Shown: positions 26,720 through 51,351 of the stretch, piece after piece
Layout of the letters: each line of letters opens with the position of its first letter
Numbering within the stretch: position 1 is the first letter of the stretch
Source of the DNA: Raillietiella orientalis
Taxonomy: Eukaryota
Direction: 5' to 3'
DNA: 51,351 nt
Assembly: GCA_036172245.1 (NCBI GenBank)
Contig: JAYWIR010000054.1
Span: 930,001-981,351, forward strand
Position numbers and translations under genes: made by a program
The notes under the pieces: model-generated
Databases searched by the model: none
Told to the model about the DNA's origin: nothing
The model's input: only the letters and a program-made list of their open reading frames with translations

Positions 26720-26878
26720 TTGTACCTAGGCAACAACCAAGTGCTGCCGACCCTGTCCGTACAGCAAGCTGGCCGACCAGGATTCCCAAGCTTGCCTTCC
26801 GGCTACCGCTTTGTATTCCGACAGCCTGCGGATGTCGGAGTGGACGTGCTGTACGTGCGCTCCTTCATTTAGGTACCA
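26720..26878 (-). mobile_element. APE-RT linker fragment (A-like) starting at the linker target site
   Basis: DIRRLSEYKAVAGRQAWESWSASLL matches A1 DIRRLAEYKAGAERQAWHSGSASLL. Confidence 0.8.
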
Positions 26879-26879
26879 A

Positions 26880-28831: not shown

Positions 28832-30780
28832 TTGTCACTCAGGTGCGCCGAGTCCTTTATTAATAAATTATCAAGGAACACTGTTTCCGGACAAAGGGCA
28901 CAGAAGATACGAAGGGGGAGGTATCTCTACACGCAGATCGGTATACCGAAAGTCCAGAACGGGCGGGAGGGTACCACAACTACACATATAAAAAATAAAA
29001 ATGAAAATATGGGGAGAGTAAGGGACAGGGATCTTTGCTGCTGCCGTTCCAGACTTTCAGAACCAGCTATGGATGCCGGCGAACTATCTCCTAACGCCCT
29101 ATGGTAGATGGGCCAACTCGGAAGCGGACGACATGTTCGCGATGGCTATTCCGGTGTGTTAACGAAAAATGGCCAGCTTATCCAACTCTCGGTGTGCCCT
29201 CTCGATGACGCGGGTGTAACAGACTGTTGCGATTACAGTACCTAAAGACAGGCCGCCTGGCGTGAAGAAGCAGCGCATCAAGTCTCATACAATGTCACCC
29301 TGGTGCCGGAAAGCTGAGGCAAGCCTCCGCCACAGTCCTTGGAGGACACCGCAGTCCAGAAGCAAGTGCGGGAGCGTAACCACATTCCCGCACCGCTTAC
29401 AGTTTGGAAAGACAACTCCCACGAAACACGGTTCGTCCGCTGGTTGGAGTGGAAATCCCGATGCACCAGCATGACGAAGTCCTGCTTCCAAGAAAGGGGA
29501 AGCACAGAAGTGCACAAACAGAAGGGAGGGACCACAAGTACTTCGGGGGGCACACTCAAGTGTTCGCTCCACCGAAGGAGTCCCTTTGGGATGTGGCGAA
29601 CCGTGGCGACGTCTGCCAGCTCGCAAGTCCTCCAGCCGGTCATGTGTCGTGTTGATCCTGCGATGGTGCAGGAGACCTCCCATCTCGCCGGTTGGCAGCT
29701 GTCGTCGCTTGCCCTGGGGGCTGACAGCACGACGGCAAGGGGCGTGATGGTCAGGCGAGTCCACTTCTCTTGGCTGTTTCAGACCTTATCCACCCTGCAG
29801 TACGGGGAGAGGTGAGCACAGCGGAGTTCCAGAAGCGAAACATCCTGTTCCTTTGCCAAGCCATGCAACGGTTCCTACCATCAGGCTTCCAAGTTCGCTG
29901 GGCGGCAAGAGATCCATTTCTGGGATGCCAGGAGCCGGTAGACCGCATTCAACGGGAACCCGAAGCTTCTCGTGGCGCGCTTTGTATGCAGCCGGAGCGA
30001 CAGAAGTCCATCGCTGTCGGTGCAGCGCCGCAAGAGGAGGTGCGCTGGAGCAAACCCCGGAGTAAACCAAAGGTTGGCGCACAGGGCCAACATCCGAAGC
30101 TGCACCCACAGCGCGATTCTCTTCAGCGTCAGCATGCGTAAGCCTGCATCCCGACGCGGAACCGCCAAGTTTTTGAGGGGGATCCTGGAATTCGTAGGTG
30201 CATACAGAGCGTTCCTCAACAGGCTGTGCAACTGTTTCTTCGCCGAGTAGAAGAGCAGGCAAACAAAAAGCAGGGGGAGCAAGAGGGGGGCGACGAAGGC
30301 GTTTCGTACCGCGGCCCGCTCCGATTGGAGGAACCTGCCATGGTGGAACGGGCACAGAGCACTCGTAGCCTTCCGAAGGCAGTCCGACCACACTTTCCCT
30401 GGGCTGATGTTTCTCAGCGGAACTCCCTAGTATTGGAAGGAGGAAGCGGTCAGGATCCGCAGGCGGATCCAATCGGACTGCCCCTCCCACGCCGCATTAA
30501 TAGGAACTACAAAGATCTTAGTCCGGTTTACGCTCATGCCCGCTCCATGGCTAATCAGCTCGAAGAAATCCTCGAGATTGGACGCCGGGGTGGTCACGGG
30601 TAAAAGTAGACGCAGGTCGTCAGCATAGGCCGCCACGGAGGGCGTTCCTGGACAAGAGCTCGGCAGATTGGCCAGCTTCAGCCTCTACGCCCTCAGCACC
30701 AACTCAAAGAAGATGCTGAAGAGCAACAAGCTTAAGCTTTCGCCCTGCCTGATGCCCGGCCAAACCGGCACGTTGCAGCA
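28832..30780 (-). mobile_element. 5'-truncated element I (RT C-half to 3' end), inserted antisense in the APE of K
   Basis: GIRQGESLS, AAYADD, PNCKRCGNVVTLPHLLLDC; terminal hairpin at 28836-28861. Confidence 0.85.
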
Positions 30781-31090
30781 GCTGAAAGAGATACAGCATA
30801 ACGCGTAGCGGCTAGGTATGTCCACTGATCCTGGACGATGCGGCCCACCTTTGCCGTGGTCGCACGCGTTTTTGGTGAGCTCCAGCAAGCGTAACCAAAA
30901 GAAGTTTTTGTGAGTGTGGAACTGCGGACGCTGAAGGGCAGAAATGTCTGAAGACGCCGCAGCACCAGCGACGGGCCCAGGTGCGTCGGGAGAGCCCTGG
31001 ACTCTCCAGTGACCGGGGGGAGGGAAGCCGGGAAGAAGACGCGGCGTCCGGAGCCTTTGCGGTGGAAGTCGATTTGCGTAAAGCTTTCGA
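30780..31090 (+). mobile_element. RT fragment of a host element ending at DLRKAFD
   Basis: GAFAVEVDLRKAFD ends at the junction with A3. The left boundary is uncertain. Confidence 0.7.
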
Positions 31091-32570
31091 TTTTCACCCG
31101 GCTTTTAACGGGTCGTTTATTGAAAATAAACTCTATAGTGAAAATATTAATGGCTGTAGCAATGCTCCAGCCACAAGCGAAGAACCACGGAGCCTGCCAA
31201 TTCACCGGTTCCCAGACCGGTACGGTCCACCAAGGCAGCAGGGAAAGGAAAAAAAAAACTAAACAAAAAGAAACAAAGGGTGTGAGGGAACGGAAAGGGA
31301 TCGCTGATGCTGATGGGGCCGCATCATCACTCTCAGGATGCAGGAAAGCTCTTGTTTGATTTGAACATCCAGGTGACTCCATCGCGACGCCCTCCTCAGG
31401 AATTAGGAGGTGCACTGGATGGCATCCTGATTGCTTGGTCCTCCTGTCGCCGTGCTCCATGCGGTGACAATCCCACGAAGGCAGCACAAGGCTGCTATCG
31501 AGGACGCTGGCCGAAGGGCGTCGGCAACGAAGAAGGCTTTTAGGGCGTCCCTGATGTTGCCGCAAGAGATACCGATGGCCGCGGCAAAGCGGAACCAAAG
31601 GGGCCGAAGGGCAACACAATCCACAAGCAGGTGGGGGAGGGACTCCCGTTCCCCACACCTGACGCAATTGGGGTCCACCGCTCCCCAGGTCCAGTAGTGT
31701 CGGCAGGCGTTGCAGGGGAGTCCGCAGTGCTGCAACAGGAGAGCCGACTCCTGTTATTTTAAGGGGAGGGTGGAGGTGTTCATTAGTACCGAGGGCCACT
31801 TCAAACGTTCAATGGGAACGTCGAGCAGCGCGCCCCAGCCCAGAAGTCCATAGGGAGGCGTACTCGGGGTCGCAGCGTCAGTCAGCTGACCCGTCTTCCA
31901 CTCTCCTATTTTCTACTCCTTCCCGGAGATTGTAACTGCAACCTCCCACTTCGCCGCAACATCGCTGTTCAGATCTTCCATCAAGTAGGGCAGCGCAGCA
32001 GCTAGGGGAGTTCTTCCTGCCCACGCTCTCTTCTTTGGATCCTCCAGGATCTTACGGAGCGTGCAACTTCTGTAACCCCCAAACAGGAACCTTCGTTCCT
32101 GTTGGGAGCGTTGCATGCCGAACTGTCCCCACGTGCGAACGGTTTCCTGCAACCAGGCACTACCGTTCGCAAGGCGACAGGTGATTTGTCCAAAGTATCT
32201 TCGTGTCAGCGCAGCCACCCTCCGTAGCTGAAGTCCGCATCGGTTGAAGCGGCGACAAAGTGCAAGAGAGGACGTCAGTCCCGTGATGCTGGTGGGTTGC
32301 TGGAGAATGAGACCTGCAGAAACGCACCAACAGGTGCACCACAACTCCGGAACAAGTGCCAACATTCGGAACGGGAGCTGAAGTTCCAGCCGTTCCAATG
32401 TCAGGACGCCGATTCCACCGTCCCGACGCGGAGCGCACAAGTCCTTTAAGCGGACTCGGGCCCTCCCGTTGTCCCAGAGGGCGATACGGAGGAGGTCTTT
32501 CGTCCGCTTTTTTATCCTCTCTGTGGGGGGGCAAACAAAAAGCAGGTGGCGGAGGAGAGGAGCCCCTCAT
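31091..32570 (-). mobile_element. 5'-truncated family A copy A3
   Basis: MQRSQQERRFLFGG, NCVRCGERESLPHLL; ends CCGGGTGAAAA on the minus strand. Confidence 0.9.
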
Positions 32571-34015
32571 TTCATACGAAAAAGAGCAGCGGGCCTCCTG
32601 AGGAGATTCCTTTGGGGCAAATGGAGGTACCGTGTGAGGCTCAAAGATTTGTGCTCTCCACTTAAGGACGGTGGACTTAAAGTACCTACGCTGGAGCGCA
32701 TGGAAATACAATTAAGGTTTCGGACTCTCGCTTTTGCGGCCGATTTGTGGGACAAGCCGTGGTGCCTTTTACCACACCTCCTGGCCAACGAGCCTGTGGA
32801 TTCGGCGGACTTTTGTCGTTTCTGTTGGCGCGCAACAGCGGAGAAGCCCACAGCGGCTTTTTCCTGCGTCGCATGGACGTTGGTTTACTGGGAAACGCCT
32901 GGATCTCCTGCCTACCAGGGAACTACTCTGCATGGTTGCACGAGTCAGTGTCCACCTGAGTAAAGATCCACGTTCCGGCGGGCACGAAGAACACTTGCCT
33001 GCAAAGGCACGCCTGCTGGAAGCTGCAGGAGATTGTGCAGTCCCAGGATAAGCTAATGTGAGCCCTGATAACACTTCTTGCCCCAGAGCTGCCCTTCCTT
33101 GTAAACGCCAGGGACAGTAGCGAGCAGGGGAGATGGACCGTGTCCTGCACCATAGGCGTCAGGACACAAGCGATAAAGGCGTGGACATCTCGGCAGCTAG
33201 CGGACCCTGCGACACCGAGTGTCCCGCCAAACGGAATTCGACGCTGGGGCGAGCTACTCGGACTATCTCCGGAGGAGATGAAGTGGCCCCCAGCGTCCTG
33301 GAACAGTGCATCCCTACCCCTGAAATGTCAGGATGTGGCGTTGCTTGTGGTACTCTGGGGTTTACCTTTTAAAGCACGCCTGCATCACACCACCCGGGGG
33401 GCTGTGGATCCTAATTGCGACCGGTGCGGGGAAAAAGAAACATTCCTCAACCTCCTTATTTAGTATAGCGCCCTCCACTCTCTCTGGGATCGCCTTGCGT
33501 CGATTTTGGACTTGCGCGGATGCTGCCCGAAGGACGTATTCAGGCGCCTCTTCTATCGTGACTCCTTGTCTCCGTTCGCCTGTGTAGTAGTCCTCTGCTG
33601 CATTCGAGGGATCGTGGCGGCTTGGAACGCCACCAGAAAAAGACGTCAGATAACCGGCAACGCTTTACATTGGACTCGCACTTTCGAGCGAACCGTGTGC
33701 AAGTGGCGCCATTTGGGCGCAGATAGGACGCAGCTTGCTAGGATCCTCAAGAGGATCTAGAGGACCCTTCCGCGCGCGCAGTGATCCCTTCCCTGCCCTT
33801 CCATCCCTAAAACATTTGTTTTCTTCCAGGTTTGAACTTTTTGTTTCTTTTTGTTTTTCTTTATTTCCCATCCCCGCGCATCGGAAGGACCTCTCCGGCA
33901 CGGAGCCGGTAACCAGCAAGCTGTTTTGGAGTGGTAAACCTTCGGGTTCGCCACGCGACATTTTTCTGTAATTTTATTTCCATGAAATAAATGCCCCGGC
34001 ACATCCGGGTGTCAA
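32571..34015 (+). mobile_element. 5'-truncated element J (ORF2 C-terminal third + 3' UTR)
   Basis: RVRLKDLCSPLKDGGL, EMKWPPASW, DPNCDRCGEKE; AATAAA-CCCGG-cacat-CCGGG-TG at 33986-34011. Confidence 0.9.
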
Positions 34016-35395
34016 CAACCCGCCGCCGCGCGAACGCCGACGCCGCAACAAATTCGCGAGCCCAGCGTGAGTAGCGACGACCGGGACTTCAATAAGGAGG
34101 CGGAAGAGTTAGCAGCCATGCTCCAGCAACCTCCCAAGGCCCAGGAGAAGGCCTTGAGGCGTCCGGCTGAGGCGAAAGGACCGGAGACTTCCGAGTCCAA
34201 AGCCGAAGCCGGCAACGCTCCGGCAGTCGCTCTCCCGAAGCGCAAAGCGGGCCGCAAGGTAGGCAACCCGCGGCGCTCCGCACCTCCACCGGCGGAGGAG
34301 GAAATGCGGTCGGACCACGACGACGGGGAGGCGATGTCCGCGAGGTCTCGCTACTCCTCGCCGGAGACGTCCCTGGCCAAGCAGGATCCTCCAACCACCA
34401 CCACAACCACCGACGGACCGCCTCCTTGCGAGCAACAGCCCGTCGCAATGGATACACAACTCCCGCCTGCTGAACAGCAGGCGGAGGACGGTACGCTTAC
34501 ACCATAAACCCACCAACGCGTGGACTCTCCTCCTGCCGGCGACTGCGCGTAATCTGTTGGAACGTCAACGGGTTGCGCGACGACGGCAAGAGGAGAGAAG
34601 TGCCCGCCAGCCTGCGGGACTTTGACCTGGCGCTTCTGCAGGAGACGCACGTGCTCCGCGCAGGGGAGGCCCAGGAAATCGAACGGATCGCAGGCGGGCG
34701 GCTCGTATACCAAAAAGGGAGAGACCGCACCCGCAGTGTGGGTTTCATGCTGAAGCCAGCCGTCGTTATTGCGCTGCGCGACGTACACTTCGACGGGGAA
34801 GGTCAAATCGGGCAGCTTGTTGCCAAGTGGTCCGACGCGATCGACCTCGTCGTGACCAACGTGTACGCGCCCGGCACGAGCCACAGGCGCGGGGAACGCA
34901 GTTGGTTCTTCGAAGGCCTGCGGCGAAATTGGCTGGCCGAAGCAGACATGCGAAACGCGCACCTCATTGCCGGGGAATTTAACGTCTGCCTGCTGGCAGG
35001 TGCGCCCGACATTCGCGCACAGCTGGTCAACGAGATGTGCGCTGCCATGCACGCGCGCAACTTGTTGGCCGGTATCGCCGGGACGGAGACGAGGATCGAA
35101 CACATGTTCCTCGTCAACAACCTGTGTTCGCGGGTGGGAAATCAAGGGGCAATGCCATCCGTACTTTCCGACCATCCCCGGTTCGTGGTAGAAATATACC
35201 CGCGCGGTAGAGGTCCACCCTCCACAGCGTGGAGTTTGCCAGGGGACTGGTTGCGCCTCGCAGGAGCGCAACATCTTTGCTCGTTCCTGCAAGGCTTCCA
35301 TCTGTAGTCGCTCGCGGACTGGGACGACTTGAAGAGCTCAGTTCGCGAGTTCTGCGACCAGTCTCCCCTGAACCGTCTCCCTCCAGGATTCGGCG
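34016..35395 (+). mobile_element. Element F: ORF1 tail (to 34507) and APE domain, interrupted at PPGFG
   Basis: KEAEELAA, WNVNG, LLQETH, NVYAP, AGEFN, SDH motifs. Confidence 0.9.
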
Positions 35396-35602
35396 TTGTC
35401 ACCTGGGTTCGCCCGGGGCGTTTATTATAAACTCCACATGCGTGGTACAAGGCCCCACCACGGCCGTAAACACAGGACCTGTCGAGACACCGATACGCAG
35501 CCCGGCGTGGCACTCCCCTACAGCGAAAGGGGATGAGGGGAAAAAACAAAAAGAAGAATAAAGAAATAAAAAACAAAAAGAAGTTGGAGGGCAGGGAAGG
35601 GA

Positions 35603-38600
35603 TCACTCGTCGCTGTGGGGAGGGCCCATCCGTCGAAAGAAGCCCTCGAGCTGTGTCTGCATATTCCACAGTTGGGGCCATTCGGCAGCTCTTCGCAAGA
35701 AGCGTTGGGCATACGGGATGACATCCCTCGCCTGTGGTCCCACTCCTTCGTTGTTGGCGTCGCTCCATGCCGCCACGATGCCACGCAAGAACCACGAGGC
35801 TGCGATGGCTGCGGCTGGCTGCAGTGCGTCCTTCACGAAGAGGGGCCGAAGAACGTCTCTGAAGGTGCTGTTTGTAGGGAGCTCGAGGGTCGTTCCGAAC
35901 CCTTTCCAAAGGGGTCGGAGGGCAGCACAATCCACAATAAGGTGGGGGAGAGACTCCCGCTCCCCGCACCTGGCACACGCAGGATCCACAGCTCCCCTCG
36001 TCCAGTGGAAGCGGCGCGCGTTGCAGGGTAGACCCCAGTGCAAGAAGAGCAACGCCGACTCTTGCCACATGAGGGGCAGGATCCTGGATTCCTTCATCAC
36101 CGGGGGCCACTCCAGCTCATCCCTGGGGATGGCGAGCAGCTCACTCCTTCTTAATAATCCTCGCGGCTAAACGCTCGGGGTCGTGGCGTCGGCCAGTTCC
36201 CCTGTTGTCCAGCCGCTGATCAACTTCTCGCGTCCCTCGATGCAGCAGGAGACTTGGCACCTTGGCGTCCGGCTGCTGTGAAGTGCCCTCCTCAGGAAGG
36301 GCAGCGCCCTAGCTAGGCAGTTCTTCTCTGCCCATGTGCATCTTGCTGGACTTTCCAGGATATTCAGCAGCGTGCAGCGGGCGTAGGGGCTGAATCGGAG
36401 ACGATTCCACGTTTCGTAGCACCTCTGGTTAACCGCTGCCCACGTTGCAATATTCTCCTCCAGCCAGGCGGGGGAGTTCGCGGGGAAGCAAACCATCCAG
36501 CTGTTCTCCTTGGCCAATGTTGCTATGCGCCCCAGCAGTAGGCCGCATCTACGCATCTTCCGGCCACGGCTCAGAAGAAAAGGCGCGAGTCCATCGCACC
36601 GGGACACACGGCTGGCCAGGAGGAAGGACGGAGTGCACCAAATGGTGTTCCACATCCTCGTTGCGATGGCGAGTGTTCGCCACTGCAGCTGCTTCTCCAC
36701 GCGCTCTAGCGTCAGGAGGCCAAGACGGTCGTCCCGACGCGGAGCGCACAAGTCCTTCAAAGGGACTCGGGGCCTCCCCTTGCCCCAAACGGCGATACGG
36801 AGGAGGTATTTTGTCCCCTTCTTGGATTCCACGGTTGGGGTGCAAACAAAATGCAAGGGGCGGAGGATGGGGGCCGCGAAGGCGTTCCGAACCGCGGCCT
36901 GTTCCGGCAAGTGAACCTTGCCTTCCAGGAACGGGCCGATCGCCGTCTCGACTCTTTAGGGGCAGCTGGACCACGCTTCCGCAGGGGAGTAATAGTCCAA
37001 CGGAACACCAAGGTACTTGAAACACCTCGCCTTACGGATCACCAGACGGACGCAGTCCTACTGCCCTGCCCACGCCGCACCCATTGGCACAACCGAAGTC
37101 TTCGCTCTGTTAACCTGCAGTCCGGTTTCGCGGCTGAGCAGATCGAAGTAGTCTCCGACCGCCTTCGCCGGGGTGGACATTCGCAACAAGAGCAGAAGAT
37201 CGTCGGCGTACGCTGCTACGGCGGGCGTGCCGGGGCACGAGCTCGGCAAGGGGGCCAAAGTCACCCTGTACGCTCTCAGGACCAGCTCAAAGTAGGTGCT
37301 GAAGAGCAGGGGGCTGAGGCTATCTCCCTGCCTTATGCCCCGCCGTTCCGGCACGCCATACACCTGGTGTCCACTGAAAGAAACGGTAATAATCGCATTC
37401 CGACAGCAAGAGCGCAGGTAGGAAATTAGGAAGGGTGGCAAGCCCATGCGATCCAGGAGCTCCAAGAGGAGTTCCTAGTCTACACAGTCGAATGCCTTGT
37501 GGAGATCGACTGCTAGCGCTAAGGCCCTCTTCCCCGCCCGGCGGTCCCTTCCCAGCCCAGCTGGCGGCCCCAATGTGAGGTTGTTGACTTTCCCTATCCC
37601 TTTCTTTTCTCTTCTCTGCAGGTGCACCCATGTGCTTGCGAAGAAGAGGTTGGCATCCATACTTCGCCCGGGAACCGCATAAGACTGCTCCGGGCTAATT
37701 ACGGATTCTGCCACCTGCCCCAAACGCGAAGCTCATAGCTTTGCTATTAACTTCGCGTTTGTATTCACGATCGTGATCGGACCCCAGTTCTTTAAATCCC
37801 TGAGGTCTCCCCCTTTCGGAAGGAGCCTCACTCTGGCTGACCGAAACGAGGCGGGAACATCGCCTTTGTCTCGGATCAGCCTGATCAACTTAAGCAACAG
37901 GGGTGCCAGCTCTTCCGCGAAGCTCTGAAAGAGCTCCGCGAACAAGCCGTCTTCCCCTGGAGCTTTACGCCTCTTGAGCCTTTTGATACCGGCAAGAATT
38001 TCGCCGGTGGTAAAAGGCTCGTCGAGGATTTCAATCTCCTCCTCCCCTATTGCCGGGGCGCCATCCGGAAGCAAGCGCCGAGAGGCGTTTCGATCCGGGG
38101 GCTCCCTGGCGTAGAGGGAGGAATAAAAACTCCGCACGAGATGCCGTACCGACGCCGAGGAAGAATATTCCCGGCCCTGGTCGTCCAGCAAGCTGGCCGA
38201 CTCGGATTGCCAGGCTTGGCGTTCGGACCCCGGGCGGTACTCGGACAGGCGACGGACATTAGGGTTTCTCTCGTACCTACGAGCCTGTAAATAGGCCCGA
38301 TGGTTGCGAGCATCCTCGCCGAATCAGGGGGCAGGTGATCCAGGGGGAACTGCTCACAGAACTCCCGGACCGATTCGTTAAAAAGGTCCCAGTCCTGGAG
38401 ATTCCGGAGCGTGACGCCTCTCAGGTATTCGCGAAGGTGTTCCTTCGCACCTGAGAGTCGCGTCCAGTCCCCCGGCAGACGCCAATCCCTGGATGGCGGA
38501 CCTTTGTCGCGAGGCCGCATCTCGAAAATTAACCGGGAATGGGCCGACAACGTCGACGCAACCCTCCCCCGTTTGCCGACCCGTGAACACAGGTCAGCGT

Positions 38601-39200
38601 CGAGGAAGACGTGGTTGATGCTGCGGACCATTCCCCTCGCACCCGCGAACAAGTTGCGCGCACGCATGGCGGCGCTTAACTCGTTCATCGAGTTCTCTTG
38701 TGTTTCTGGCTCACCTGTTAGCAGACGGAGATTGAAATCTCCCGCTATCATGCGAGCCTTCCGCACGTTCGTGCCCGCCAGCCAGTCGCGCTTCAGGGAT
38801 TTCAGCAGCCTGGTGCGGTGGCTGTATCCCTGTTTACCGCTGGGGGCGTACACATTGGTGACGATCAGTTCGATCGAGTCCGACCAGCTGAGAATCAGCT
38901 GACCGACCCGACCGTCGTGATCGAAGCGCACGCCCTTCACGGCAGCGTCGATGCCCGGCTTCACGAAGAACGCGACCCCGCAGGTGTTGCGGATACGCAT
39001 CGCCAATACAGCCGACCCCCCGCGATCGTCTCGATTTCTCGGGCGTCTGCCGCGGTGATCACGTGGATCTCCTGCAGCAGGGCCAGGTCGAGCTCACGCA
39101 GAGTTTCTGCCGTATCTCGCCTGTTACCGTCGTCGCGCAGCCCGTTGACGTTCTAACAGGCGGCGCGTATACGACGGCGACTGGCGAGCCCAGGTGTTAC
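35603..39200 (-). pseudogene. C ORF2 (APE-RT-Cys/His finger), several stops and frameshifts
   Basis: NVYAP, AGDFN, KAPGEDG, DLHKAFD, RQGDSLSP, YADD and CARCGERESLPHLIVDC spread over ORF pieces. Confidence 0.92.
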
Positions 39201-40878
39201 TCTTGGGGAGATTGCGATGCGGTGTCCACCACCTGTTGTTGCGGGACGCTAGGTGGAGGAGGAAGGTCAGGCGCTGCTTGCACCTGGTCCCCCTCCTCCA
39301 TGGGTAACGGCGCGTCGAGCGGGTCACCCTCAGGTGAGGTCGCGCCTCCCTGCTCACCCTTCTCCATGGGGGTGGCATACTCACCGGCTTCGGAGCGTGG
39401 GAGTTCCTTGTCGGGGATTCCCACGCTACCGCTACCTTCCTGCTTCTCCTCCTCGCTGGTAGAGGGGAGGCTCCTCCTGGGTTTCAGGGACTTGCGTCCC
39501 GACTTCCTGGGGGGTGCCTTCGAGGAGGAGGATGCACTTCCGACCCCCAGGTGCGACTCACCTGTGGGGGCCTTTTTCGCGTGAGCCGGCCTTCGCACGG
39601 CCTTGCGTGAGGGGTTCTCACGCTCCGCCAGCGTGGCCGCGAGCTCCTCCGCCACCTTTACGAATGCGGCGTCCTCTTTGTCGACCGGCGCGTCGCGCGG
39701 CTCACCCTCTGTTTGCACAGAGGGTTCGCCGTCGCGAACTTCGGGCGCGACGGAAACGGCGAGGGGAGGCTCGTCGCCCCGGGTGGCATCATCCGGAACG
39801 ACGAAACGTTGCAGTGCCACCGTGCACTCGCGTACGGTTTCCGAACGCGGCCCGGGTTTTTTGCCTTACCGGCCGGCTTCAATTTTTTCTCCTTTAAAGG
39901 AGCTTTCCTCTCTTTTCTGGCTGCTACAAGTTGCCAGCTCTCTTCACTTTCCGCCTCTTGGAATGGTTTATCCTCAGTCTTTTCTTTTGGAGGTTGAGGA
40001 TCTGGCAGCTTCAGCCAGCCAGCGTCCGCCTTAGGTCTTGTGACCTTTACTGCGCGTTTCCCCTGCGCCTTTTTCGCGGCAGGAGGAACCGGGGTGGGGC
40101 GTTTTGGGCACATACGTCGAACGTGGCGCTTCTCCCTGCACATGTGGCATTGGATGTTAGGACACCTCTTGCGAAGGTGTCCTACGGTATAGCAGTAGCC
40201 GCAATACCGGGGCTTTCCCACGTACCAGAGGTCCACGCTCTCTTGCGCGACCTCCAGCTTGTGGGGAATCCCACAGTCCTTACTCACGGTTACCCGCGCT
40301 GCAGCATTGCCTCCGGAATGGCTATTGAAGCCTTCAAAGATTGTTGGCTTAGACCACAGCGCGTGCACCTCGCCGAACTTCCGAAGTTCTTGTGCTACCG
40401 CAGAGCGAGCCATACGGCTCGTTATTCCAGTGAGATGGACCACCACGGAGCGTTCCATCGTCACCGGCAAGATCTTGCGGCCGTCGACGTTTAACGGGTT
40501 GGTGATTAGAGCCTGAGCCGAGGTGATCTGCTTGCACACCACCTCGACTCGCTGACCTCCGCTGGGAACGGAGAAACCGTCAAGATCTTGTTCTTTTACT
40601 CCGGCGTTTTGCAGCGCTTTCGAAAACGCGCGTGCCGATTTTCCTTCAAATAAGGGGCCTACCTGGTACATTAAGCTGGGCTTGTACCCAGCTGCCCGGT
40701 AAACCGCCATCTTGGCCACGGTTTCCGGGCTCGGCGCGGCCACCATGGCGCTCCAGCTCCTAGACTTATGCGGCGAGGGCGATTCCGGGGCGGACGCCCC
40801 TGATTCTGTAGGCTGTTGGAGTGGGCAAGCCTCCCACACACCTACCTCCATCGTGGTGACCTCAGGCATCGCTGCCAT
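39197..40878 (-). pseudogene. C ORF1 (two CCHC knuckles; frameshift near 39880)
   Basis: MAAMPEVTTMEV...CGYCYTVGHLRKRC..CHMCREKRHVRRMC; tail in ORF 39197..39820. Confidence 0.88.
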
Positions 40879-40985
40879 CGGACACCAACGATGTTCCACA
40901 CGAACACACACAAAGAAAAAGCCGCTTCCTGTCGACTCACTCGGGAGCGAAGGAAAAAGACGTATACTCGCCAAGGGATTCGGCG

Positions 40986-43096
40986 ATGCCACCCAGATAC
41001 GCCAAGACGTTTATTCAAAACATTTCAACAGTCAATACAGAACGTGGTACAAGGACCCACTGACGGCCACGCAATACCGGAACTGCCGGGACACCGGGAC
41101 GCAGCCCGTTGTGGCTCCCCTCGGCATTAAAGGGGGATGAGGGAGAAAACAAAAATAAAATAAAAGAGAAAAACAGACCACAAAAAAAGTTTGGAGGGCC
41201 GCGAAGGGATCACAGAAAACTGCTGGGAGCGCCTATCCTTTGCAGGATGCCTTCTGGTTCCATTTTCAGGTTTCCTAGATTGGGTCATCGGTAGCTCTCT
41301 GCAGGAAGCGAGAAGCATACTCGATGACGTCCTTCACGATGCAGTCTTCATCTTCGGCATCACTCCAGGCCGCATCGATACCACGAATGCAGCAAAGTGC
41401 TGCCAGGGCTGCAGCTGGACTAGGGGCGTCCCGCACGAAGACATGACTGGAGACATATCCAACATTGCCACCATCAGGTATTGCAAGGGCCCTTTTAAGA
41501 CGATACCCAAGAATCCGGACGGCAGGGCATTCAACTAAGAGGTGGGGGAGCGACTCTTGCTCCCCACACTTGGCACACGCAGGATTTACTCTTCCCCGCG
41601 TCCAGTGGTAGCGGCGCGCGTTGCAGGGTAGACCCCAATGCAGCCACAGAAGCGCCGATTCTTGCCACTTCAGGGGAAGAATCCTGGATCCAAGTAGAAC
41701 CGGGGGCCACTTCAGGTCATCCAATCGAATGCCGAGCAGCTGCCCCATCTTCTTAATCCACGCGGCTGGAGACTAGGGGTCGTTGCATCTGTCAACTCTC
41801 CCATGGTCCAGCCGCTCATCATCTTCTCTCTGCCTACGATACGGCAGCAGATTTGCCAATTTGGCTTCCGGCTTCAATGAAGCGTTCTTTGGAGGAAGGG
41901 CATCGTCGTAACAAGGGGTGTGCCTTCCGCCTACGTGCAACTCGGTGGAAATTCAAGAATTTCAAGAAGAGTTCGGCGGGCGTAAAAGCCGACTCGCAGG
42001 CAGTTCATCGGTCTTTGCACCTCTGGTTCTGCTTGGCCCAGGTGCCAGCAGTCTCTTCCAGACAAGTGGAGGAGTAGGCAGGGCCACAAACCATCCAGTC
42101 ATTCTCCTTTGCCAGGGTTGGCATGCGGCCGAGCATTAGACCGCATCTTCGAATCTTCCGGCCAGGGCACAGAAGAAACGATGCGAGTCCTTCGCAGCGG
42201 GACACACGCCTGGCCAGGAGGCGGAACGGAATGCACCAAGCGGTGCTCCACATCTTCGCTGCGATAGCGAGGGTCCGCCATCGCAGCTGGATTTTTTACG
42301 CGCTCCAGCGTGAGGATGCTGAGACCGCCGTCATGATGCGGAACGCACAAGTCCTTCAAAGGGACTCGGGGCCTCCCCTTGCCCAAAAGAGCTATGCGAA
42401 GGAGGTCCTTCGTCCGCTTTTTTGATTCCACGGGGGCGGGGCGAACAAAAAGCAAGGAGCGGAGAATGCGGGCCACGAAGGCGTTCCAAACCGCGGCCCG
42501 TTCCGGCAAGTGGAACTTGCCTTCCAGGAACGGGCTGATCGCCGTCTCGACTTTTTGGAGGCAGCTGGACCACGCTTCCGCAGGGGAGAAGTTCCCTAAC
42601 AACACACCGAGGTACTTGATGCACCTCACCGTGGGGATCCCCAGACGGACCCAGTCATGCTGTCCTGCCCACGACGCTCCAACTGGCAACACTGACGACT
42701 TCGCGCTGTTAACCTGTAATCCGGCACCACGGCTAAGCAGGTCGAAGAAATTTCCGACCGCCTTCGTCGGGGTGGACATAGGTAAGAGGACAGAAGATCG
42801 TCGGCACACGCCGCTACCGATGGCGTGCCGGGGCACGAGCTTGGTAAGGGGGCCAAAGTAACCCTGTACGCTCTCAGCATTAATTCAGCGTAGGTGCTAA
42901 AAAGCAGGGGGCTGAGGCTGTCGCCTTGCCTTCTGCATCGCCTCACCGGCACGCCATACACCTTTTGTCCACTGAAAGTAATCGAGATTGTCGCGTTCCG
43001 CCAGCAAGAGCGCAGGTAGGTAATCAAGGAGGGTGGGAAGCCCATGCGTCCCAGGAGCTCCAAGAGGAGTTCCTGTTCAACACAGTCGACCGCCTT
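40986..43096 (-). mobile_element. Element B, 3' half (RT from D-CVEQELLLELL to the 3' end)
   Basis: RQGDSLSP, CADD, KYLG, CAKCGEQESLPHLLVEC; terminal hairpin at 40990-41015. Confidence 0.9.
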
Positions 43097-43193
43097 TTGC
43101 GCGCTAGGGCGGACGTGTTTTCTCGGTGCTCCTCGTGCCAGGAAGTCTCCCCCAGTGCAAGCGTCGTATGGTTCGGTGGTCGATCAGGCAGCG

Positions 43194-44863
43194 ATGCCTG
43201 AGGCGTCCACCAGGGATAGCCAGGAGGCAGCGGCAACGCCGCCCCCAGAGGCGATGGAGAGCCAGAGGGCAGGGGAAACGTCGCCCCCAGAGGCGATGGA
43301 GGTGAAAGCATCCGCCCCCACAGAATCGGTCTCCGCTGCAGCGCGGGCGTAAAGCGCCGTTGTGTCGGCGCCATCGCCTGCAGCCGCGGCGGAATTGTCG
43401 GCCTATGTGGAGGAGGGGTACAACCCCTCATTGTTCTACAAGGTAGGCAATTTATATTCTTTAGAGAGCGCGCGCGCCTTATGGAAGGGCATGCGCGCTC
43501 TCGGTGTCAAAGAGGAGGAGCTCAGCGCTATGACCATCCGCAGCGGGGGTCAGTACTTTGAGGTCATCTGCAAACATGCAGAGCTGGCCCAACGACTGCT
43601 TAAAACTCCTGTTGTGATGGAGACGCGCAGGCTCCTCCCTACTACGGCGGACCGCAGCATGGTGGTCCACCTGTTAGGCGTAACCGTGCGAATGCGCAAA
43701 GAACAGGTTCGCGCCGCTTTGGAACAGTTCGGAACGGTCCACGCGCAGTGGACGAAAGTAAGTCCTTCTAAGGACTACACGGAGCTGCAGCACGGCCTCA
43801 CTGCTGCGCGCGTGACCGTTCGGGAAGGCTGCACTGTTCCCCACAAACTAGTGGTCGAAGGCGAAACCGTCGACCTCTGGTGTGTCGGGAAGCCGAAATA
43901 CTGTGGCTTCTGCAATACGTCGGGCCACCTCAAAAAGAGGTGTCCCAATGTGCAGTGCCAAGTATGCGGCACAATGGGCCACACGAGGGAGATGTGCCCA
44001 AAAGCAGCAGTGCGGGTGGTTTCCGAAAGAAACCTTAAAAAACGCGCCCGGCTTCTGCAGAAAAGGCTGGCGGCGAAAGCTGCCGCGAAGGCTGTGCCAA
44101 TCGCGCCCAAGACCCAGGCCGCACCCGTGACCCCGGCGACCAACGCCGAAAAAGTTGAGGGAGACGCCCAGGAGACTGGGTGGCAAGTGGCAGCGGACAA
44201 AAAATCAAAGAAGGAGAGGAGGATGGAATAGAAAATCGCCTACCAACAGAAGAAGAAAGAGCAGGGTAGCGCGATAATTAAAAAGTGCAGCGTCGTTGTC
44301 GAACGCGTTCTCGATGTTGCCGAACGCTGCCGGAAAGAACTCGCCGCTACCGACGACCTCCCCTCTGTTGACACAGTCAACAGCGAGGGGAGCGAGCCGG
44401 CGGCGGCGTCCGTCATCGACACCACCATCGATGACGTAGCCTTCGCGCGAGCCGCGGAGGAGCTGGCAGCTTCGTTGCAGCCAGAACCCTCCAAGGCTGG
44501 CAAGAAGGCCGTAAGGCGTCCGGCCTCCCCTCAAGAGTACCCACTTCCGACCCCGAGGTGAAGGCCGGAAGCGCAGCCTCCGTTTCCACGGCACCGCGCA
44601 AGAAGGCTGGACGTAAGTCCACAAAGCCAAGGAAGCTCGATCCCCCCGTCGAAGGAGAAGATATGGCTGCCGCAAGCGAGGGTGCCATGAGCGTGGGAAA
44701 CTCTCCGGACCCGTCGCCCGAGAGACTTCTACGCGCGGACACGGAGGGGATGGAGGGGGTGAAGGAGGAGGAGGCCGAACAGGTGCCTCAGGTGCCTGAG
44801 AAGACCGAAACCCCCATGGACATCCCGCCCGCCTCGCAAGAGGACGGCTCCCCCACACCTTAA
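43194..44863 (+). pseudogene. A2 ORF1 (two CCHC knuckles; stops at 43350 and 44229, frameshift near 44530)
   Basis: CGFCNTSGHLKKRC..CQVCGTMGHTREMC. Confidence 0.88.
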
Positions 44864-44877
44864 TCTTCCCAGCAGTA

Positions 44878-47800
44878 ATGCCGGGAATCTCCTACCGCCG
44901 TCGTCAGCGCATCGCCGTTTGGAACGTGAACGGTATGACAGACGCCGGCAGGAGACGAGACATGGCCGCCCTTCTGGAGTCCTACGACCTTGCGCTGCTG
45001 CAGGAGATCCACGTGATCTCTGCAGAACAAGCGCAAGAGATCGAACGGATCTCCGGATGGCGGCTATGGTACAGGTGTGGGAGACCGAAAAGTTGCGGTG
45101 TCGCCTACCTGCTTCGGCCAGCCGCCGAAGACGCGGCTCGGGGCGTGCAGTTCGACGATCACGGTCGTGTCGGCCAGCTGACTCTCAGGTGGTCCGACTC
45201 GATCGACCTGATCGTCACGAACGTGTACGCACCGAGCGGCAAGGACCTGATGAACAGGAGGGCGAAAAAAGAGTTTTTCCTTGCCCTCCGGCGAGACTGG
45301 CTGACCGAAGCAAGCGTGCGGAATGCCCATCTGGTTGCAGGAGATTTCAACGTTCGCCTGAAACCAGATGAGCAGAATCCCGACCGTGATCTGGTCAACG
45401 AGGTGTGCATGGCGGTGCACACCTGTAATCTGTTGGCTAGTGCACCGGGGATGGAAGACAACATGGACCACGTGTTTCTTGACGAGCACCTGTGCCCTCG
45501 CGTAGGCAGGCGCGGCAAGTAACCGTGCGAGCTGTCCGACAATCGCCCGCTGGTCCTCGAGATCCATTCGCGTGACAGGGGCCCCCCTCGTCAGCGTGGC
45601 GTCTCCCAGGAAACTGTCTGAAGCTCCCGGACGCGGCGGAACATCTCCGCACGTTCATACGGAGCTTCAGGCTGCGGAAACTCCAGGATTGGGACCGCTT
45701 CAAGCGGTCGGTCCAGGAGTTCGGCGACCAGTTCCCTCTGTACCCCCTACCTACGGGTTTTGGGACCGAGGTCCGTAACGAATGAGCCTAAGTGCAGACC
45801 CGTCGTTACGCCAGGACCCCCGACATCCGCAGGCTAACGGAATACAAAGCGGGAGCCGAGAGGCAAGCCTGGCAGTCCGGATCCGCCAGCTTACTGGACG
45901 ATCAAGGCCAGAAGCACTCGGCACCTAACCAAATCCGCGGCCAGCTGCGGAGTTACTACTCCTCCCTGTATGCCAGGGCACCTCCGTAGAGGAACTTCTC
46001 ACGACTCCTGCTTCCGGAAGGCGCTCCAGCGATCGGGGATGAGCAGAGAAAGACCCTCGACGAGCCTTTCACGATGGACGAGATCCTCTCGGCCATCGGA
46101 AAGCTCAAGATGCGAAAGGCTCCAGGGAAGGACGACCTGCCCGCGGAGTTTTATCAAGCTTTCGCGGCTGAGCTAACCCCCCTGGTACAGAAACTTACCA
46201 TGCTCATACACGAAACAGGTGACGTTCCCGCCTCGTTTCGTTCGGCAAAAATGCGTCTCCTAACTAAGGGAGGAGATCTGAGGAGCATGAACAACAGGGG
46301 TCCCATCAAAATTGTGAATGCGGACACCAAGTTGATAGCCAAGATGTGGGCAGAGCGTCTGGGACGGGTTGCCAACATCTTCATCAGCCCTGAACAGACA
46401 TATGCTGTTCCCGGGCGAAGCATGGAGGCGAACCTGTTCCACGCTTCCACCTGGCCAGAGCTCCAACATGAAAGGAGCTTGGTGCGCAGCCGAAATTCCG
46501 TTGCGTGCGCCGGCAAGGGGTTTGATGGTCGGGTGGGGGAGGGAGCCCTTGCGGTCGCAATCTACTTGCGAAGAGCATTCGATTGGGTCGACCAGAATCT
46601 CCTTCTGGAGCTTCTGGAACGCTTGGGCTTCCCGGCCTCCTTAGTGACCTATCTGCGTTCTTGCTGGCGCGACGCGCTCATCAATGTTACTTTCAGAGGG
46701 CAGATCGTGCACGGCGTGCAGGTGCGGCGTGGGATCCGGCAGGGAGACAGCCTGAGCCCCTAGCTCTTCAGTACCTACTTTGAGTTGGTACTAAGAGCAT
46801 ACAGGTGAACTCTTACACACCTGCCGCACTACTGTGCCGGTACGCCGGCCGTTTCCGGATACCCGGACGGCCTTCTGCTGCTGCTCCCTATGTCCAACCC
46901 GGCTGCGGTGGTCGAGGAGTTCTTCGACCTGCTGCATCGGGGAACGGGACTTACGGTGAACAGGGCGAAGTCGTCCGTGATGCCAGTTGGTGCGTCCTGA
47001 GCAGGGCAGCAGGACTGGGTCCGTTTTGGGATCCTCACGGTGAGGTACTTCAAGTTCCTTGGTGTGCCTTTGGGGGACTACTCCCCTGCGGAAGCGTGGT
47101 CCGGCTTCCTCCAAATAGTAAAAACGGCGATGGACCCGTTCCGAGGCGGCAGGTCTTTCCGGCCTGAACGGGCCGCGGTTTGGAACACGTTCTCGCCTCC
47201 TCTCCTCCGCCTTCTGCTTTTCGTTTGCCCCCCCACAGAGAGAATTAAAAAGCGGACAAAGGACCTTCTCCGTATCTCCCTTTGGGGCAACGGGAGGGGC
47301 CCGATTCCGCTTAAAGTACTTGTGGGCTTTTCGTCGGGATGGTGGTCTGGGCCTCCTGACGCTGGAGCGGCTGGAGATTCAGCTCCAGTTCCGATTGTCG
47401 GCACTCGTTCCAGGGTTGTGATGCACCTGCTGGTGCGTCCTTGCACGTCTCCTTCTCCAGCAAGAAACCGGCAAGACGGGACTGACGTCGTTTCTTTCAC
47501 TACGTCGCCGCGTCAACCGATGCGGACTTCAGCTACGGAGGGTGGCTGCGCTGTATCGCAAAAACCCAGGATTGTTCACCTGTCGCCCTTTGAACGGTAG
47601 TGTCTGGTTGCAGGAAACCGTTCGAACGTGGGGACAGTTCGGCATGCAACGCTCCCAACAGGAACGACGTTTTCTGTTTGGGGGTTACAGAAGCTGCACG
47701 CTCCGGGATATCCTGGAGGATCCAAAGTAGAGAGCGTGGGCAGGAAGAACCCCACTCGTTGCTGCGCTGCCCTACTTGATGGAAGATCTGGACAGCGATG

Positions 47801-48459
47801 TTGCGTCGAAGTGGGTGGTTACAGTAACAATCTCCGGAAAGGAGAAGAAGATAGGAGAGTGGAAGATGGGCCAGTTATCAGACGCTGCGACCCCGAGTAT
47901 GCCTCCCAATGGACTTCTGGGCTGGGGCGCGCTGCTGGATGTTCCCATTGAACATTTGAAGTGGCCCCCGGTGCTCATGAACACTTTCGACTTCCCCTTA
48001 AAATGGCAGGAGTCGGCTCTCCTGTTGCAGCACTGGGGACTCCCCTGCAACGCCCGCCGACACCATTGGACCTGGGGAGCGGTGGACCCCAATTGCTTCA
48101 GGTGTGGGGAACGGGAGTCCCTCCCCCACCTGCTAGTGTATTGTGTTGCCCTTCGGCCCCTTTGGTTTCTCTTTGCTGCGGCCATCGAAATCCCCTGCGG
48201 CAACCCCAGAAACGCACTGAAAGCCCTCTTGGTTGCCGACGCCCTTCTGCCCGCGGCCTCGTTAGCAGATTTGAGCAGTCTACGCGGGATCGTCACCGCT
48301 TGGAGCAAGGCTACGGGAGGACAACGCGACCGAGGTGCCATCCAGCCAGCCTCCCAGTTCCTGAGGAGGGCGTCTTGATGGCCCCACCTGGAACCAGGAA
48401 TACAGAAGGAGCTTGCCGGCATCCTGCAAAGAATGCAACGGCCCCACCAGCAACTGTGA
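44878..48459 (+). pseudogene. A2 ORF2 (APE-RT-Cys/His finger), heavily disrupted
   Basis: MPGISYRRRQRIAVWNVNG...; colinear with A1 ORF2; YADD decayed to YPDG. Confidence 0.92.
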
Positions 48460-48676
48460 TCCCTTCCCTTACCCTCCCAACTTTTCTTTTCTTTTTTGTT
48501 TTGTTTTTGTTTTTCCCCCTTCCCCCTGCTGCCGTGGTTGACCGTGCCGGTCTGCGAACCGGTGATCCGGCATGCTCTGTGTTTATTCGTGCGTGGCTGG
48601 AGCAATGGTCCAGCCACCGCACGTCTTTGTAAAAGTTTATTTCACAATAAACGCCCCGGCGAAATCCGGGTGAAAA

Positions 48677-49515
48677 TCGAATGCCTTATGGAGGTCGACT
48701 GCGATCGCTAAGGCCCCCTTCCCCGCATGAGGGTCCCTATTTTGTACCACTGGCGGCCCCGAAGTAGGGTTGCAAATTTTCCCTTTCTCTTCTTTCTTAC
48801 TTCGCTGTGCGTGCATCCATGTGCTCGGGAAGAAGAGGTTGTCCTCCATACTTCGCCCGGGAACAGCGTAAGTCTGCTGCGAGCTAATTACGGAATTGGA
48901 AACCTGCCCCAATCGCGACGCTTACAGCCCGGGAATCAACTTGGCGTACGTGTTCACAATCGTGATCGGACGCCAGTTGCAAAGTTTCCAGAGGTCTCCT
49001 TCTTTCGTGAGGAGCCTCACCCTGGCTGACCGAAACGAGGAAGAAACATCGCCTTCGTCTCTGATTCGCCTTGTCAACTCGAGCACCAGGGAAGTCAGCT
49101 ATTTCGCGAAACTCTAGAAGAACTCCGCGGGCAAACTGTCATCCCCTGGCGCCTTACGCCTCTTGAGCCTTTTGATACCGTCGAGAATTTCACCGGTCGC
49201 GAAAGGCTCATCGAGGCTTTATCTCTCCTCGTCCCCTATCTCCACGGAACCACTCATGAGCAATCGCCGCGAGGCGTCTTGTTCGGGTGGTGTTTTGGCG
49301 TTAAGGAAGGAATAAAAACACCGCACAAGATTCCGTACCGCAGACGGGGACGAACGTTCCCAGCCCAGGTCATCCAGCATGCTGTCTGACCCGGATTGCA
49401 AGGCTTTTCGCTGGGCTCCGGCGCGGTATTAGGCCAGGCGACAGACATTGGGGTTCCTCTCGTGACGACGAGCGTGCAAATACGCGCGTTCGTTGCGAGC
49501 TTCTCCGCCGAATCC
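48677..49515 (-). mobile_element. Element B, middle part (linker GFG to DLHKAFD)
   Basis: GFGGEARNERAYL...KAPGDD...QTYAVPGRSMEDNLFF...GALAIAVDLHKAFD. Confidence 0.9.
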
Positions 49516-49617
49516 CCGCTGTGGAGAGCGGACGTGCTTTTCCTGCGCTATGCCTGCGTGGCAAAGCGAGTGTTTTCTCTTCTTAAGTGATTTGTGCGTG
49601 CACATCGTCGGTGTCCG

Positions 49618-51351
49618 ATGGCAGCGTTGCCAGAGGACACCGCGATGGAAGTAGGCGTGATGGAGGCTTGTTCGTCCCCACAGCCTACTGGATCAGGGGC
49701 ATCCGCCCCTGAATCGTCCCCGGCGACGCCGAGGTCCTGGAGCGCCATGGTGGCCGCGCCTAGCGTGGAAGCCATGGCCGAGATGGAAGCAAACAAGAAA
49801 GCGGGGTATAAACCCTCGCTAGTCTACAAGGTAGGCAACCTTTTCGATGGGAGAACTGCACGCGCCTTTACGAAGGCGCTGCAGGACGCCAATATTTTTG
49901 AAAAAGATCTCGACGGCCTCTGCGTCCTCAGCGGCGGGCAGCGGGTCGAGGTGGTATGCAAGGTTATCACCTTGGCCCGACACCTGATCACCGACCCGCT
50001 GATCGTTGATGGTCGGAAGATCTTGCCGATAACGATGGACCGCTCGGTGGTGGTCCATCTCACTGGGATCTCAAGTCGCATGACGAGGTCAGCGGTTCGA
50101 GAACAGCTTCAAAAGCACGGACAAGTGCACGCGTTGTGGCCGAAGTCCACGATTTTCCAACGCTACAATAGCCTTTTCGGAGGTCAAGCTGCGGCGCGTA
50201 TCACGGTAAAAGAGGGTGGTGCGCTTCCCCATAAGCTGGAGGTCTGCCAAGAAGCGGTGGACCTCTGGTACGTGGGAAAACGCCAATTTTGTGGCTACTG
50301 CAATGCAGTAGGACATCTACGAAAAAGGTGCCCGAACATTGTGTGCCACCTATGCGGCGAAAAGTGTCACGTTCGGCGCGTGTGCCCCAAGCGCCCCACC
50401 CCGGTGCCCCCTGCCGCCAAAAAGGCGCAGGGAAAACGTGGAAAGCTGGTAGAAAGACCAGCTCACGAAAATGGCCGTTCCCAACTGCCAGCCTCCCTTC
50501 CTCCCGTACAGACGTCGGAGGAAATAGCTCCCGTGGACGCGGGAATGGAGGAGGGTTGACAGCTGGTTCAGGCCAGAAGAGAGAAAAAAAAGAAAGTGAT
50601 GATAGAAGAAAATTCGGAAAAGAAAACTGCCGGCAACAAGAAAAAAGCCGCTCCGCTTTCAAAAAAAAAACTCCGCGAATGCTCGGTGGCACTGGAACGC
50701 TTAGCCGTTCCTGCCGAGTCCGCCCGCGGCAATGTTCGCGGAACAGCTGATGCGGACGCGATGAATACTCGCGTGGACGAGCCCAATCTACGTGTAGAGG
50801 GTGAGACGCGAGACTCGCGCGCCGACAGCCAGGACGCCGCGCTCGATAAAGTCGCGGAGGAGCCCGCGGCAACGTTCGGCGTCAACGATGACGCCGCGCT
50901 CGATAAGGTCGCGGAGCAGCCCGCGGCAACGGTCGCCGCTGGCGAAGACGCGGCCTTCGAGAAAGCGGCGGAGGAGCTCGCAGCAACGCTCGCCGAGCGC
51001 GAAACCCCGTCGCGCAAGGGCGTACGCAGGTCGGCTCCGACGAAGAAGGCACCCGCAGGTGAGTGCGACCTGGGGGCCGGTAGCGGATCCTCCTCCTCGG
51101 AGGCACCCCCCAGGAAGTCGGGACGCAAGTCCCAGAAACCCAGGAGGCGCCTCCCCTCCACCAGCGAGGAGGAGAAACCAGAAGGAAGCGGCAGCGTGGG
51201 AATCCCGTAGTGGGAATACCCACGCCCGGAAGCCGTCGAGTCGGCCACCCCCATGGAGGAGGGAGAGCAGGGCGGTGAAGTCCTCCCTGCAGTCGCGAAA
51301 CCTGAGCAGCCCGAACCCATGGAGGAAGGCGACCAGGTAGGCGCGACTCCA
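49618..51351 (+). pseudogene. D ORF1 (two CCHC knuckles; in-frame stops at 50557 and 51208)
   Basis: MAALPEDTAMEV...CGYCNAVGHLRKRC..CHLCGEKCHVRRVC. Confidence 0.88.
50833..50988 (+). repeat. In-frame 57-bp tandem repeat x3 (DAALDKVAEEPAAT-type)
   Basis: Units start at 50833, 50890 and 50947. Confidence 0.9.

Follow-up and report, generated by a model that had tools for sequence, protein, structure and literature searches.

The 51,351-nucleotide stretch of Raillietiella orientalis contig JAYWIR010000054.1 analyzed here (positions 930,001 to 981,351; hereafter the window) contains two GC-rich blocks, at 1-11.8 kb and 26.6-51.3 kb (about 50 to 62% GC), separated by a stretch of 37 to 44% GC without recognizable genes. 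Self-comparison of the window and protein-level mapping (including tblastn to element A1) showed that both blocks are nests of related L1-like non-long-terminal-repeat retrotransposons, or long interspersed nuclear elements (LINEs), one inside another, and that each recognizable insertion in the two blocks sits within another LINE. One group of these elements (B, C, D, E, and K) has five of its six termini in the window at a single nucleotide position of its hosts, in the linker between the apurinic/apyrimidinic endonuclease-like (APE) and reverse transcriptase (RT) domains of open reading frame 2 (ORF2), and the insert is antisense to the host in all five host/insert pairs. Linker-targeted antisense insertion, as put forward in a preliminary description made from the letters of this DNA, is thereby confirmed as observed in the window; every terminus of the group, including the sixth, maps to a linker in the opposite orientation.

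Scans of the window for conserved 3'- and 5'-untranslated region (UTR) motifs listed exactly three 3' ends (E at 5716, C at 35396, and B at 40986) and three 5' ends (K, C, and D) of the group, so that all of its termini in the window were examined and none was dropped. The three 3' ends all lie at the 10-mer GGATTCGGCG, at the places first described (5706-5715, 35386-35395, and 40976-40985), with 2, 0, and 0 mismatches, respectively. Read in the orientation of the element, C ends in ...GGTGACAA and B in ...GGTGGCAT, both followed by CGCCGAATCC, and E ends in ...GGTGGCAT followed by CCCCGAAACC, which corresponds to GGTTTCGGGG at 5706-5715. On the 5' side, the exact complement of the 10-mer adjoins two of the three ends, in agreement with the junctions proposed for C (40976) and for D within B (49506-49515): CGCCGAATCC is followed by CTTGGCG... 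in the former and by CCGCTGT... in the latter. C is bracketed by 10 identical bases, and the first bases outside the repeat differ (A versus G), so that the perfect 10-bp duplication attributed to this element holds.

Exact copies of GGATTCGGCG occur four times in the window, at 32798, 35386, and 40976 on the plus strand and at 49506 on the minus strand, compared with a mean of 0.13 in 100 shuffles, none of which reached four; three of the four copies adjoin termini of the group. When up to two mismatches are allowed, the 66 copies found are not above chance (55 expected), and therefore only exact or junction-linked 10-mers carry weight.

The 10-mer belongs to the host and not to the element. 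It encodes (P)GFG of the host APE-RT linker, in frame on both sides. In the hosts H1 and H0, the APE-side sequence ...FCDQ(S/F)PL..LPPGFG ends with it in frame, and in B the RT-side sequence GFGGEARNERAYL starts with it in frame. H1 was identified by tblastn through 50% identity to the A1 APE (amino acids 1 to 200) and a match to amino acids 2 to 60 of the A1 linker, and its left edge adjoins the 3' end of element G. The features on which the argument rests are collected in Table 1.

Table 1. Positions of the host LINEs, inserted elements, and linker sites in the window
Feature	Position	Strand	Description
Host LINE H1	about 34017-35395	+	ORF1 tail, spacer, APE domain, and linker to ...LNRLPPGFG; stops at insertion site
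Left copy of 10-bp target/duplication, GGATTCGGCG	35386-35395	+	Host (P)GFG codons; putative first-strand nick after 35395
Element C	35396-40975	-	Full length, 5580 bp; ORF1 and ORF2 (APE, RT, C-terminal zinc region)
Right copy of C's 10-bp duplication	40976-40985	+	Doubles as target flank of B 3' end
Element B, 3' part	40986-43099	-	3' end back to RT KAFD box, interrupted there by A2
Element A2 (A type)	43100-48676	+	5577 bp; antisense within the RT of B; flanks TCGACCGCCTTTTG and TCGAATGCCTTATG
Element B, linker to RT KAFD box	48677-49515	-	Reads GFGGEARNERAYL...; ends at its own linker 10-mer, with D inserted there
Element D, 5' part	49516-51351 (to window end)	+	5' UTR and ORF1; 5' end adjoins CGCCGAATCC of B
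Host fragment H0	5622-5715	+	94 bp of linker (...FPLHQLPPGFG); ends in degenerate target GGTTTCGGGG, 5706-5715
Element E	5716-6615	-	B-like element (88-89.5% identical to B), 3' part
Host N	26654-26869	-	RT side of linker, begins at NE of RNERAYL; lacks the 10-mer and the next 5-11 nucleotides
Element K	26876-28831	+	C/D-like 5' UTR, ORF1, and APE start; 5'-truncated by about 45-50 nucleotides
C's own linker site, unoccupied, TGATTCGGCG	38317-38326	-	9/10 bases; 1-nucleotide deletion shifts frame
Equivalent site in A1, unoccupied, GGTTTTGCGA	2523-2532	+	5 mismatches
Equivalent site in A2, unoccupied, GGTTTTGGGA	45756-45765		4 mismatches

The remaining 5' end, that of K, had been placed at a degenerate 10-mer near 26875, and this placement did not stand. 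The junction lies at about 26870-26876, where the host resumes at the NE codons, 11 to 17 nucleotides from the predicted nick; the 10-mer of the host has been lost there, and K is without about 45 to 50 nucleotides of the 5' UTR present in C and D. Since target-primed reverse transcription (TPRT) commonly yields 5'-truncated copies together with small deletions of the target, the K junction is compatible with insertion at the linker site, although it is no proof of it. At its other end, K stops at 28831, where the 3' end of element F interrupts it.

Seven copies of the linker are present in the window (H1, B, H0, N, C, A1, and A2), and across these copies occupancy follows the match to the 10-mer. 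The copies in H1, B, and H0 (0, 0, and 2 mismatches) are occupied, that in H1 twice, while no element occupies those in A2 and A1 (4 and 5 mismatches) or in C (9 of 10 bases matched, one deleted), and the site in N is deleted. The exact 10-mer at 32798 is also empty, and recognition therefore probably extends beyond the 10 bases. This copy (32798-32807, GGATTCGGCG) lies in the C-terminal region of the ORF2 of element G, at a break in the alignment to the A1 protein (amino acids 625/631). A B/C-like 3'-UTR motif near 32759-32775 (2 mismatches) was considered as a cryptic element end and rejected, since it is wrongly oriented and spaced for such an end and is part of coding sequence. B looks to be the older insert, given its two insertions and its higher number of stop codons per residue. 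If this order is right, the copy of the 10-mer entered by C had kept host context on the APE side only, which would place the determinants of recognition 5' of the nick.

A related set of elements, the A type, ends at a different motif. The 3' ends of A1 (5444), A2 (48676), and A3 (31091, minus strand) terminate in ...CCGGGTGAAAA (seen in 5414-5467, 48646-48699, and 31068-31121, the last on the minus strand), and in all three cases the RT box DL(R/H)KAFD follows in antisense, with AARGCNTTYGA on the host sense strand before the nick; their hosts differ (X, B, and G2, respectively). ORF1 identities are 60 to 67% between C and D, 45 to 58% between C and K, and 56 to 61% between D and K, compared with 40 to 45% between A2 and either C or D, and the window scan found the exact 5'-UTR motif only in C, D, and K. 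These values support two related groups with two sites. The earlier proposal that related families partition target sites, with A at KAFD and B/C/D at the linker, is accordingly supported by sequence comparison at the scale of the window. An alignment of the APE domain of A with that of B/C/D, a comparison also suggested at the time, contains variable stretches; C is the only near-complete copy of its group in it and is frameshifted. The KAFD site and the linker site have an ATTCG core in common, and the flanks of A2 form a 14-bp imperfect duplication (TCGACCGCCTTTTG and TCGAATGCCTTATG).

The domain matches identify APE-type LINEs of L1-like architecture, with both APE and RT in ORF2. The APE domain (PF03372) scores above the cutoff in A1 (E value 1e-9) and A2 (2e-12), N-terminal to the RT domain (PF00078; 8.4e-17 in A1), and matches human L1 endonuclease chains in the PDB (E about 2e-4). 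The APE domains of C and H1 share 52 to 59% identity with that of A1, and the RT of C shares 57% with that of A1 over 760 amino acids. Matches to zf-CCHC in ORF1 (E 0.0029) and zf-RVT in ORF2 (E 0.0045) are weak, both falling short of the Pfam cutoffs, and distant homologues bear PF13966. The nearest protein relative is a metagenome protein with 67% identity to P0001; all others among the 31 matches show at most 28%, the nearest named ones being plant and fish RT proteins (24 to 28%), and none of the 31 is named Zepp, Coccomyxa, or Chlamydomonas. The 3' part of B is 75% identical to C positions 3475-5535. C itself is decayed, with frameshifts and in-frame TGA, TAG, and TAA stops, despite which its ORF2 (35702-38407, minus strand) holds one frame of about 900 codons; since the stops are of all three types, they point to decay and not to a variant genetic code.

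The 3' ends are uniform beyond the group. All eight that are readable (5444, 48676, 34016, and, on the minus strand, 31091, 40986, 5716, 35396, and 28832) carry AATAAA, then a 5-bp hairpin of the CCCGG/CCGGG type, then GTG and 4 to 5 nucleotides, and an A-tail is present at none of the eight. Alignment of the hairpins shows one compensatory C-G to U-A change and several G-U wobble changes. Such conserved ends fit an RT that recognizes its own 3' end, and the shared hairpin and tail are likely to be its recognition element.

A public sequencing run (X1) that holds 0.10 of the sampled window words provided outside data: 689 of its contigs, all short, resemble the window at 80% likeness or more and 18 at 99% or more, and among the junctions of these contigs, 15 of the 32 joints and 6 of the 459 loose ends gave readings. 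In one contig, positions 40988 and 49500 are joined on opposite strands, an adjacency without a counterpart in the window. It can be read either as a C-like 5' end and the 10-mer leading into the RT side of a host of the B/C kind or as a B-like 3' end, the linker 10-mer, and a D-like 5' end; this ambiguous contig would represent one extra junction with a group terminus beside the linker site. Another contig reads through an unoccupied linker (...AGATTCGGCG), one has an extra G at the linker site of C (38317-38326), and two show an empty A2 site. Over 32000-51351, differences between X1 and the window are transitions at about 2:1 over each transversion class. The joints listed also include 35355/48986 and 33984/35557.

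Searches of other collections returned no close relatives. In metagenome contigs, a trimmed three-row RT alignment gave two distant loci (26 to 27% identity) among the matches listed (at least 595 pattern matches). In viral contigs, the 3'-UTR motif had no match and the protein alignment gave 70 pattern matches with no relatives; in genome contigs, the protein alignment gave 113 pattern matches, again with no relatives. The 5'-UTR motif was found at 28 loci in genome contigs, and since none of 30 loci was similar to the window at an E value of 1e-5, these 28 are chance matches in bacterial genomes. The 235-amino-acid ORF spanning the H0/E junction (P0032) drew 394 candidates from the protein database, none of which scored.

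Taken together, we consider it likely that B, C, D, E, and K form one group of L1-like APE LINEs that insert by target-specific TPRT at the (P)GFG codons of the linker and, as part of the same reading, that the targets of the group are other LINE copies, members of the group itself included. The element endonuclease would nick the host sense strand directly after 5'-GGATTCGGCG-3', and the freed 3'-OH would prime cDNA synthesis that starts precisely at the 3' terminus of the element RNA; this terminus would bear AAUAAA, the 5-bp hairpin, and a GUG-NNNN tail, with no A-tail copied. A cut in the other strand 10 bp upstream would then generate the 10-bp duplication. Because the site is asymmetric, the insert would always lie antisense to its host. 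The duplication would also restore the 10-mer on both sides and leave the same site open to repeat insertion, which would explain the head-to-tail pair of B, 10-mer, and C. The positions and orientation of the inserts, the duplication, and the host origin of the 10-mer are seen directly in the sequence, whereas we infer the positions of the nicks and that the sequence is read by the endonuclease and not through RNA pairing.

Pairing is nevertheless the main rival to endonuclease specificity, or its helper. The site could be chosen mainly by pairing of RNA with DNA. Since donor copies always lie in the linker site, a transcript that reads through would have CGCCGAAUCC... as its 3' tail, and this tail would pair with a loosely nicked linker and so set the position of the junction, as described for read-through templates of R1-type elements. 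The lack of an A-tail at any of the three 3' junctions of the group, all exact to the base, agrees with this possibility, as does the position of AATAAA only about 24 nucleotides before the element end, such that transcripts could end in the flank. However, the target copy used by C has host sequence on one side only and its duplication is still exact, and the fixed 10-bp stagger and the empty diverged sites are left unexplained by pairing alone. Moreover, the A-type elements, with a very similar 3' end, use another site. We therefore hold it unlikely that pairing is the chief determinant, although pairing and endonuclease specificity may act together.

Regional preference alone, for LINE chromatin or nest DNA, is a less probable explanation still, the shared position being in that case a small-sample effect. 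Nearly every insertion in the window does lie within another LINE, including singletons placed elsewhere (F, R, G, Y, and M), and the K junction is off the site. Yet for a random choice along a 5.6-kb body in two orientations, each extra coincidence would have a chance of about 1 in 11,000, and here five termini fall on one nucleotide in one orientation; the A-type elements are equally precise at their own site, in three of three cases.

The number of separate events bears on a third alternative, that one ancestral junction was copied by segmental duplication and the repeated flanks record a single event. The hosts H0 and H1 share 85% identity over 94 bp and the inserts E and B share 88 to 89.5%; host pair and insert pair are thus about equally diverged, and H0 with E may be an old duplicate of H1 with B. 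In contrast, the 3' end of C is only 65% identical to that of E although their hosts are 85% identical, the junction of D is on the 5' side and in another host family (B), and C shows both junctions and the duplication. These differences indicate that insertion took place independently at least three times (B or E, C, and D), and K may add a fourth event. The adjacency in the X1 contig is, in addition, missing from the window. Segmental duplication is thus contradicted for C and D and could hold only for E versus B, and as a general account it is very improbable. It is just as improbable that the element carries the 10-mer as a terminal direct repeat, as the same 10 bases at both ends of C might suggest, or that the joins are assembly artifacts: on either side the 10-mer continues the reading frame of the host, and it lies uninterrupted in the linker within the ORF2 of C, far from the termini, so that it is no fixed part of them as the preliminary description had allowed, while a 10-base repeat is too short for an assembly misjoin and a similar junction occurs in the separate data set X1.

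Several points weigh against target-specific insertion by the endonuclease of the group. The events are few (at least three and at most five independent ones in a single 51-kb window), and H0 with E is perhaps not independent of H1 with B. The K junction is off the linker 10-mer. An exact 10-mer at 32798-32807, in another context, is unoccupied, so that the 10-mer alone may not suffice. Finally, the X1 junction is ambiguous between two types, and the linker rule is known from this window and that one junction, with the specificity of the endonuclease being predicted.

Three further 3' ends, each a single case, lie at other positions of LINE bodies. The 3' end of F (28832, minus strand) is antisense in the APE of K, after ...IAGARLF (seen in 28810-28870), and that of R (about 9296; 9262-9330) is antisense in the APE of another element, after ...ATEVHEI. 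The 3' end of G (34016; 33986-34040) lies in the ORF1-ORF2 spacer of H1, in the sense orientation. A minus-strand element, Y, has its 5' end at 1068-1076, adjoining A1 in the ORF1-ORF2 spacer of the latter, so that A1 is present here without its first 1,185 nucleotides or so; the ORF1 of Y is 27 to 31% identical to those of A2, C, and D. Element X, the host of A1 (5444-5623, minus strand), is 5'-truncated within its RT and joined to H0 through a 7-nucleotide overlap, CCATCTG (5617-5623), 94 bp upstream of the linker site. This join looks like a microhomology 5' junction; if the 3' end of X, which lies beyond the window, were at the same linker site, the arrangement would amount to a 94-bp duplication. 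A3 (minus strand) and G (plus strand) meet head to head at 32566-32574, two different families cut at a near-identical RT position (amino acids 536 and 553). M and M2, members of a further family, have similar 5' UTRs at 6641-6700 and 30870-30940 (...GTGTGGAA(T/C)TGC...GGCAGAA(T/A)TG(C/T)CTGAAG), which begin within E and F at nonhomologous positions. Between the blocks, the AT-rich stretch 12000-26600 contains a 1.8-kb inverted repeat pair (16696-18480 and 22044-23823; 75.5% identity) and has no match in Pfam or Rfam; an Rfam search of the window also gave no match.

The closest known systems are the Zepp nested LINEs and the target-specific LINEs of the R1 and Tx1 clades. Zepp/ZeppL elements of green algae form one cluster per chromosome, at centromeres. 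The nests described here resemble them, as far as the accessible accounts go, in that those of Coccomyxa and Chlamydomonas also consist of L1-type LINEs in nested clusters that are GC-rich relative to their surroundings. Here, the nests have about 57 to 62% GC next to a stretch of 37 to 44%. The likeness is one of organization. In the accessible accounts, Zepp is not ascribed a target defined to the nucleotide, a constant orientation, or a sharing of sites among lineages; here, insertion is antisense and into a coding motif. Zepp arrays are described, in the accessible part of the source, as mostly 5'-truncated 3' ends (PMC8226300), unlike the full-length C (5580 bp) and A2 (5577 bp), the full 5' end of D, and the absence of A-tails in this window. 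The accessible part of a 2025 ZeppL preprint gives no defined target sequence.

At the scale of the window, the sequence supports a group that behaves as target-specific APE LINEs whose target is the LINE body, using the same nucleotide in one orientation at five of six termini, with five of five pairs antisense and at least three independent events; the likeness to known target-specific LINEs is one of behavior. Tx1L targets the Tx1D transposon. In the R1 and Tx1 clades, R1 lies in 28S rDNA, TRAS/SART in telomeric repeats, and Keno in U2 genes, according to the accessible parts of PMC4640811 and PMC1919474. The target-specific families reported in the accessible text of the Utopia paper (PMC4640811) belong mostly to early-branching, Tx1, and R1 groups, and their targets are RNA genes and repeats. 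To the extent of these accounts, the group described here is like R1/Tx1-clade LINEs in having an APE endonuclease taken to cut one sequence in a multicopy target, exact 3' junctions, a fixed orientation, and tandem reinsertion. It is unlike them in that the target is ORF2 coding sequence of related LINEs, including its own members, while known target-specific LINEs land in RNA genes, simple repeats such as microsatellites, telomeres, and, in one case, a DNA transposon. Cnl1 of Cryptococcus is a LINE that builds subtelomeric arrays of its own copies, in which respect it is similar, with a preference for G+C-rich sequence and duplications that are absent or of 1 to 12 bp (bioRxiv 10.1101/2021.08.11.455996, accessible part); no fixed site is reported there, in contrast to the fixed site and 10-bp duplication seen here. 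The search covered open full texts and yielded no account of a LINE directed at a coding motif in other LINEs, although subscription papers or Repbase Reports may contain an earlier description.

We tentatively speculate, while holding it somewhat less probable than its opposite, that the window samples a guild of LINE lineages that land on LINE ORF2, the endonuclease of each having come to use a conserved coding motif of its own: (P)GFG of the linker in B/C/D, the KAFD box of the RT in A, and possibly two N-terminal APE sites in F and R. In such a guild, insertions would always be antisense, each disrupting its host copy, and LINE nests would self-assemble by sequence-specific LINE-on-LINE insertion, perhaps including algal centromere-like islands. 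Lineages could escape by altering their target codons, as the A linker, with its 4 to 5 mismatches, seems to have done.

These elements land on a short, conserved motif in the coding sequence of LINEs themselves, a different one in each of two related lineages. Insertion at the linker helps to explain how LINEs pile up into nests. If the rule holds genome-wide, it would provide a concrete mechanism for the build-up of LINE-only islands and a natural pair of close APE endonucleases with different specificities, useful for studies of how DNA is read. It would also present transposons that compete by mutual inactivation, with visible escape of the target.

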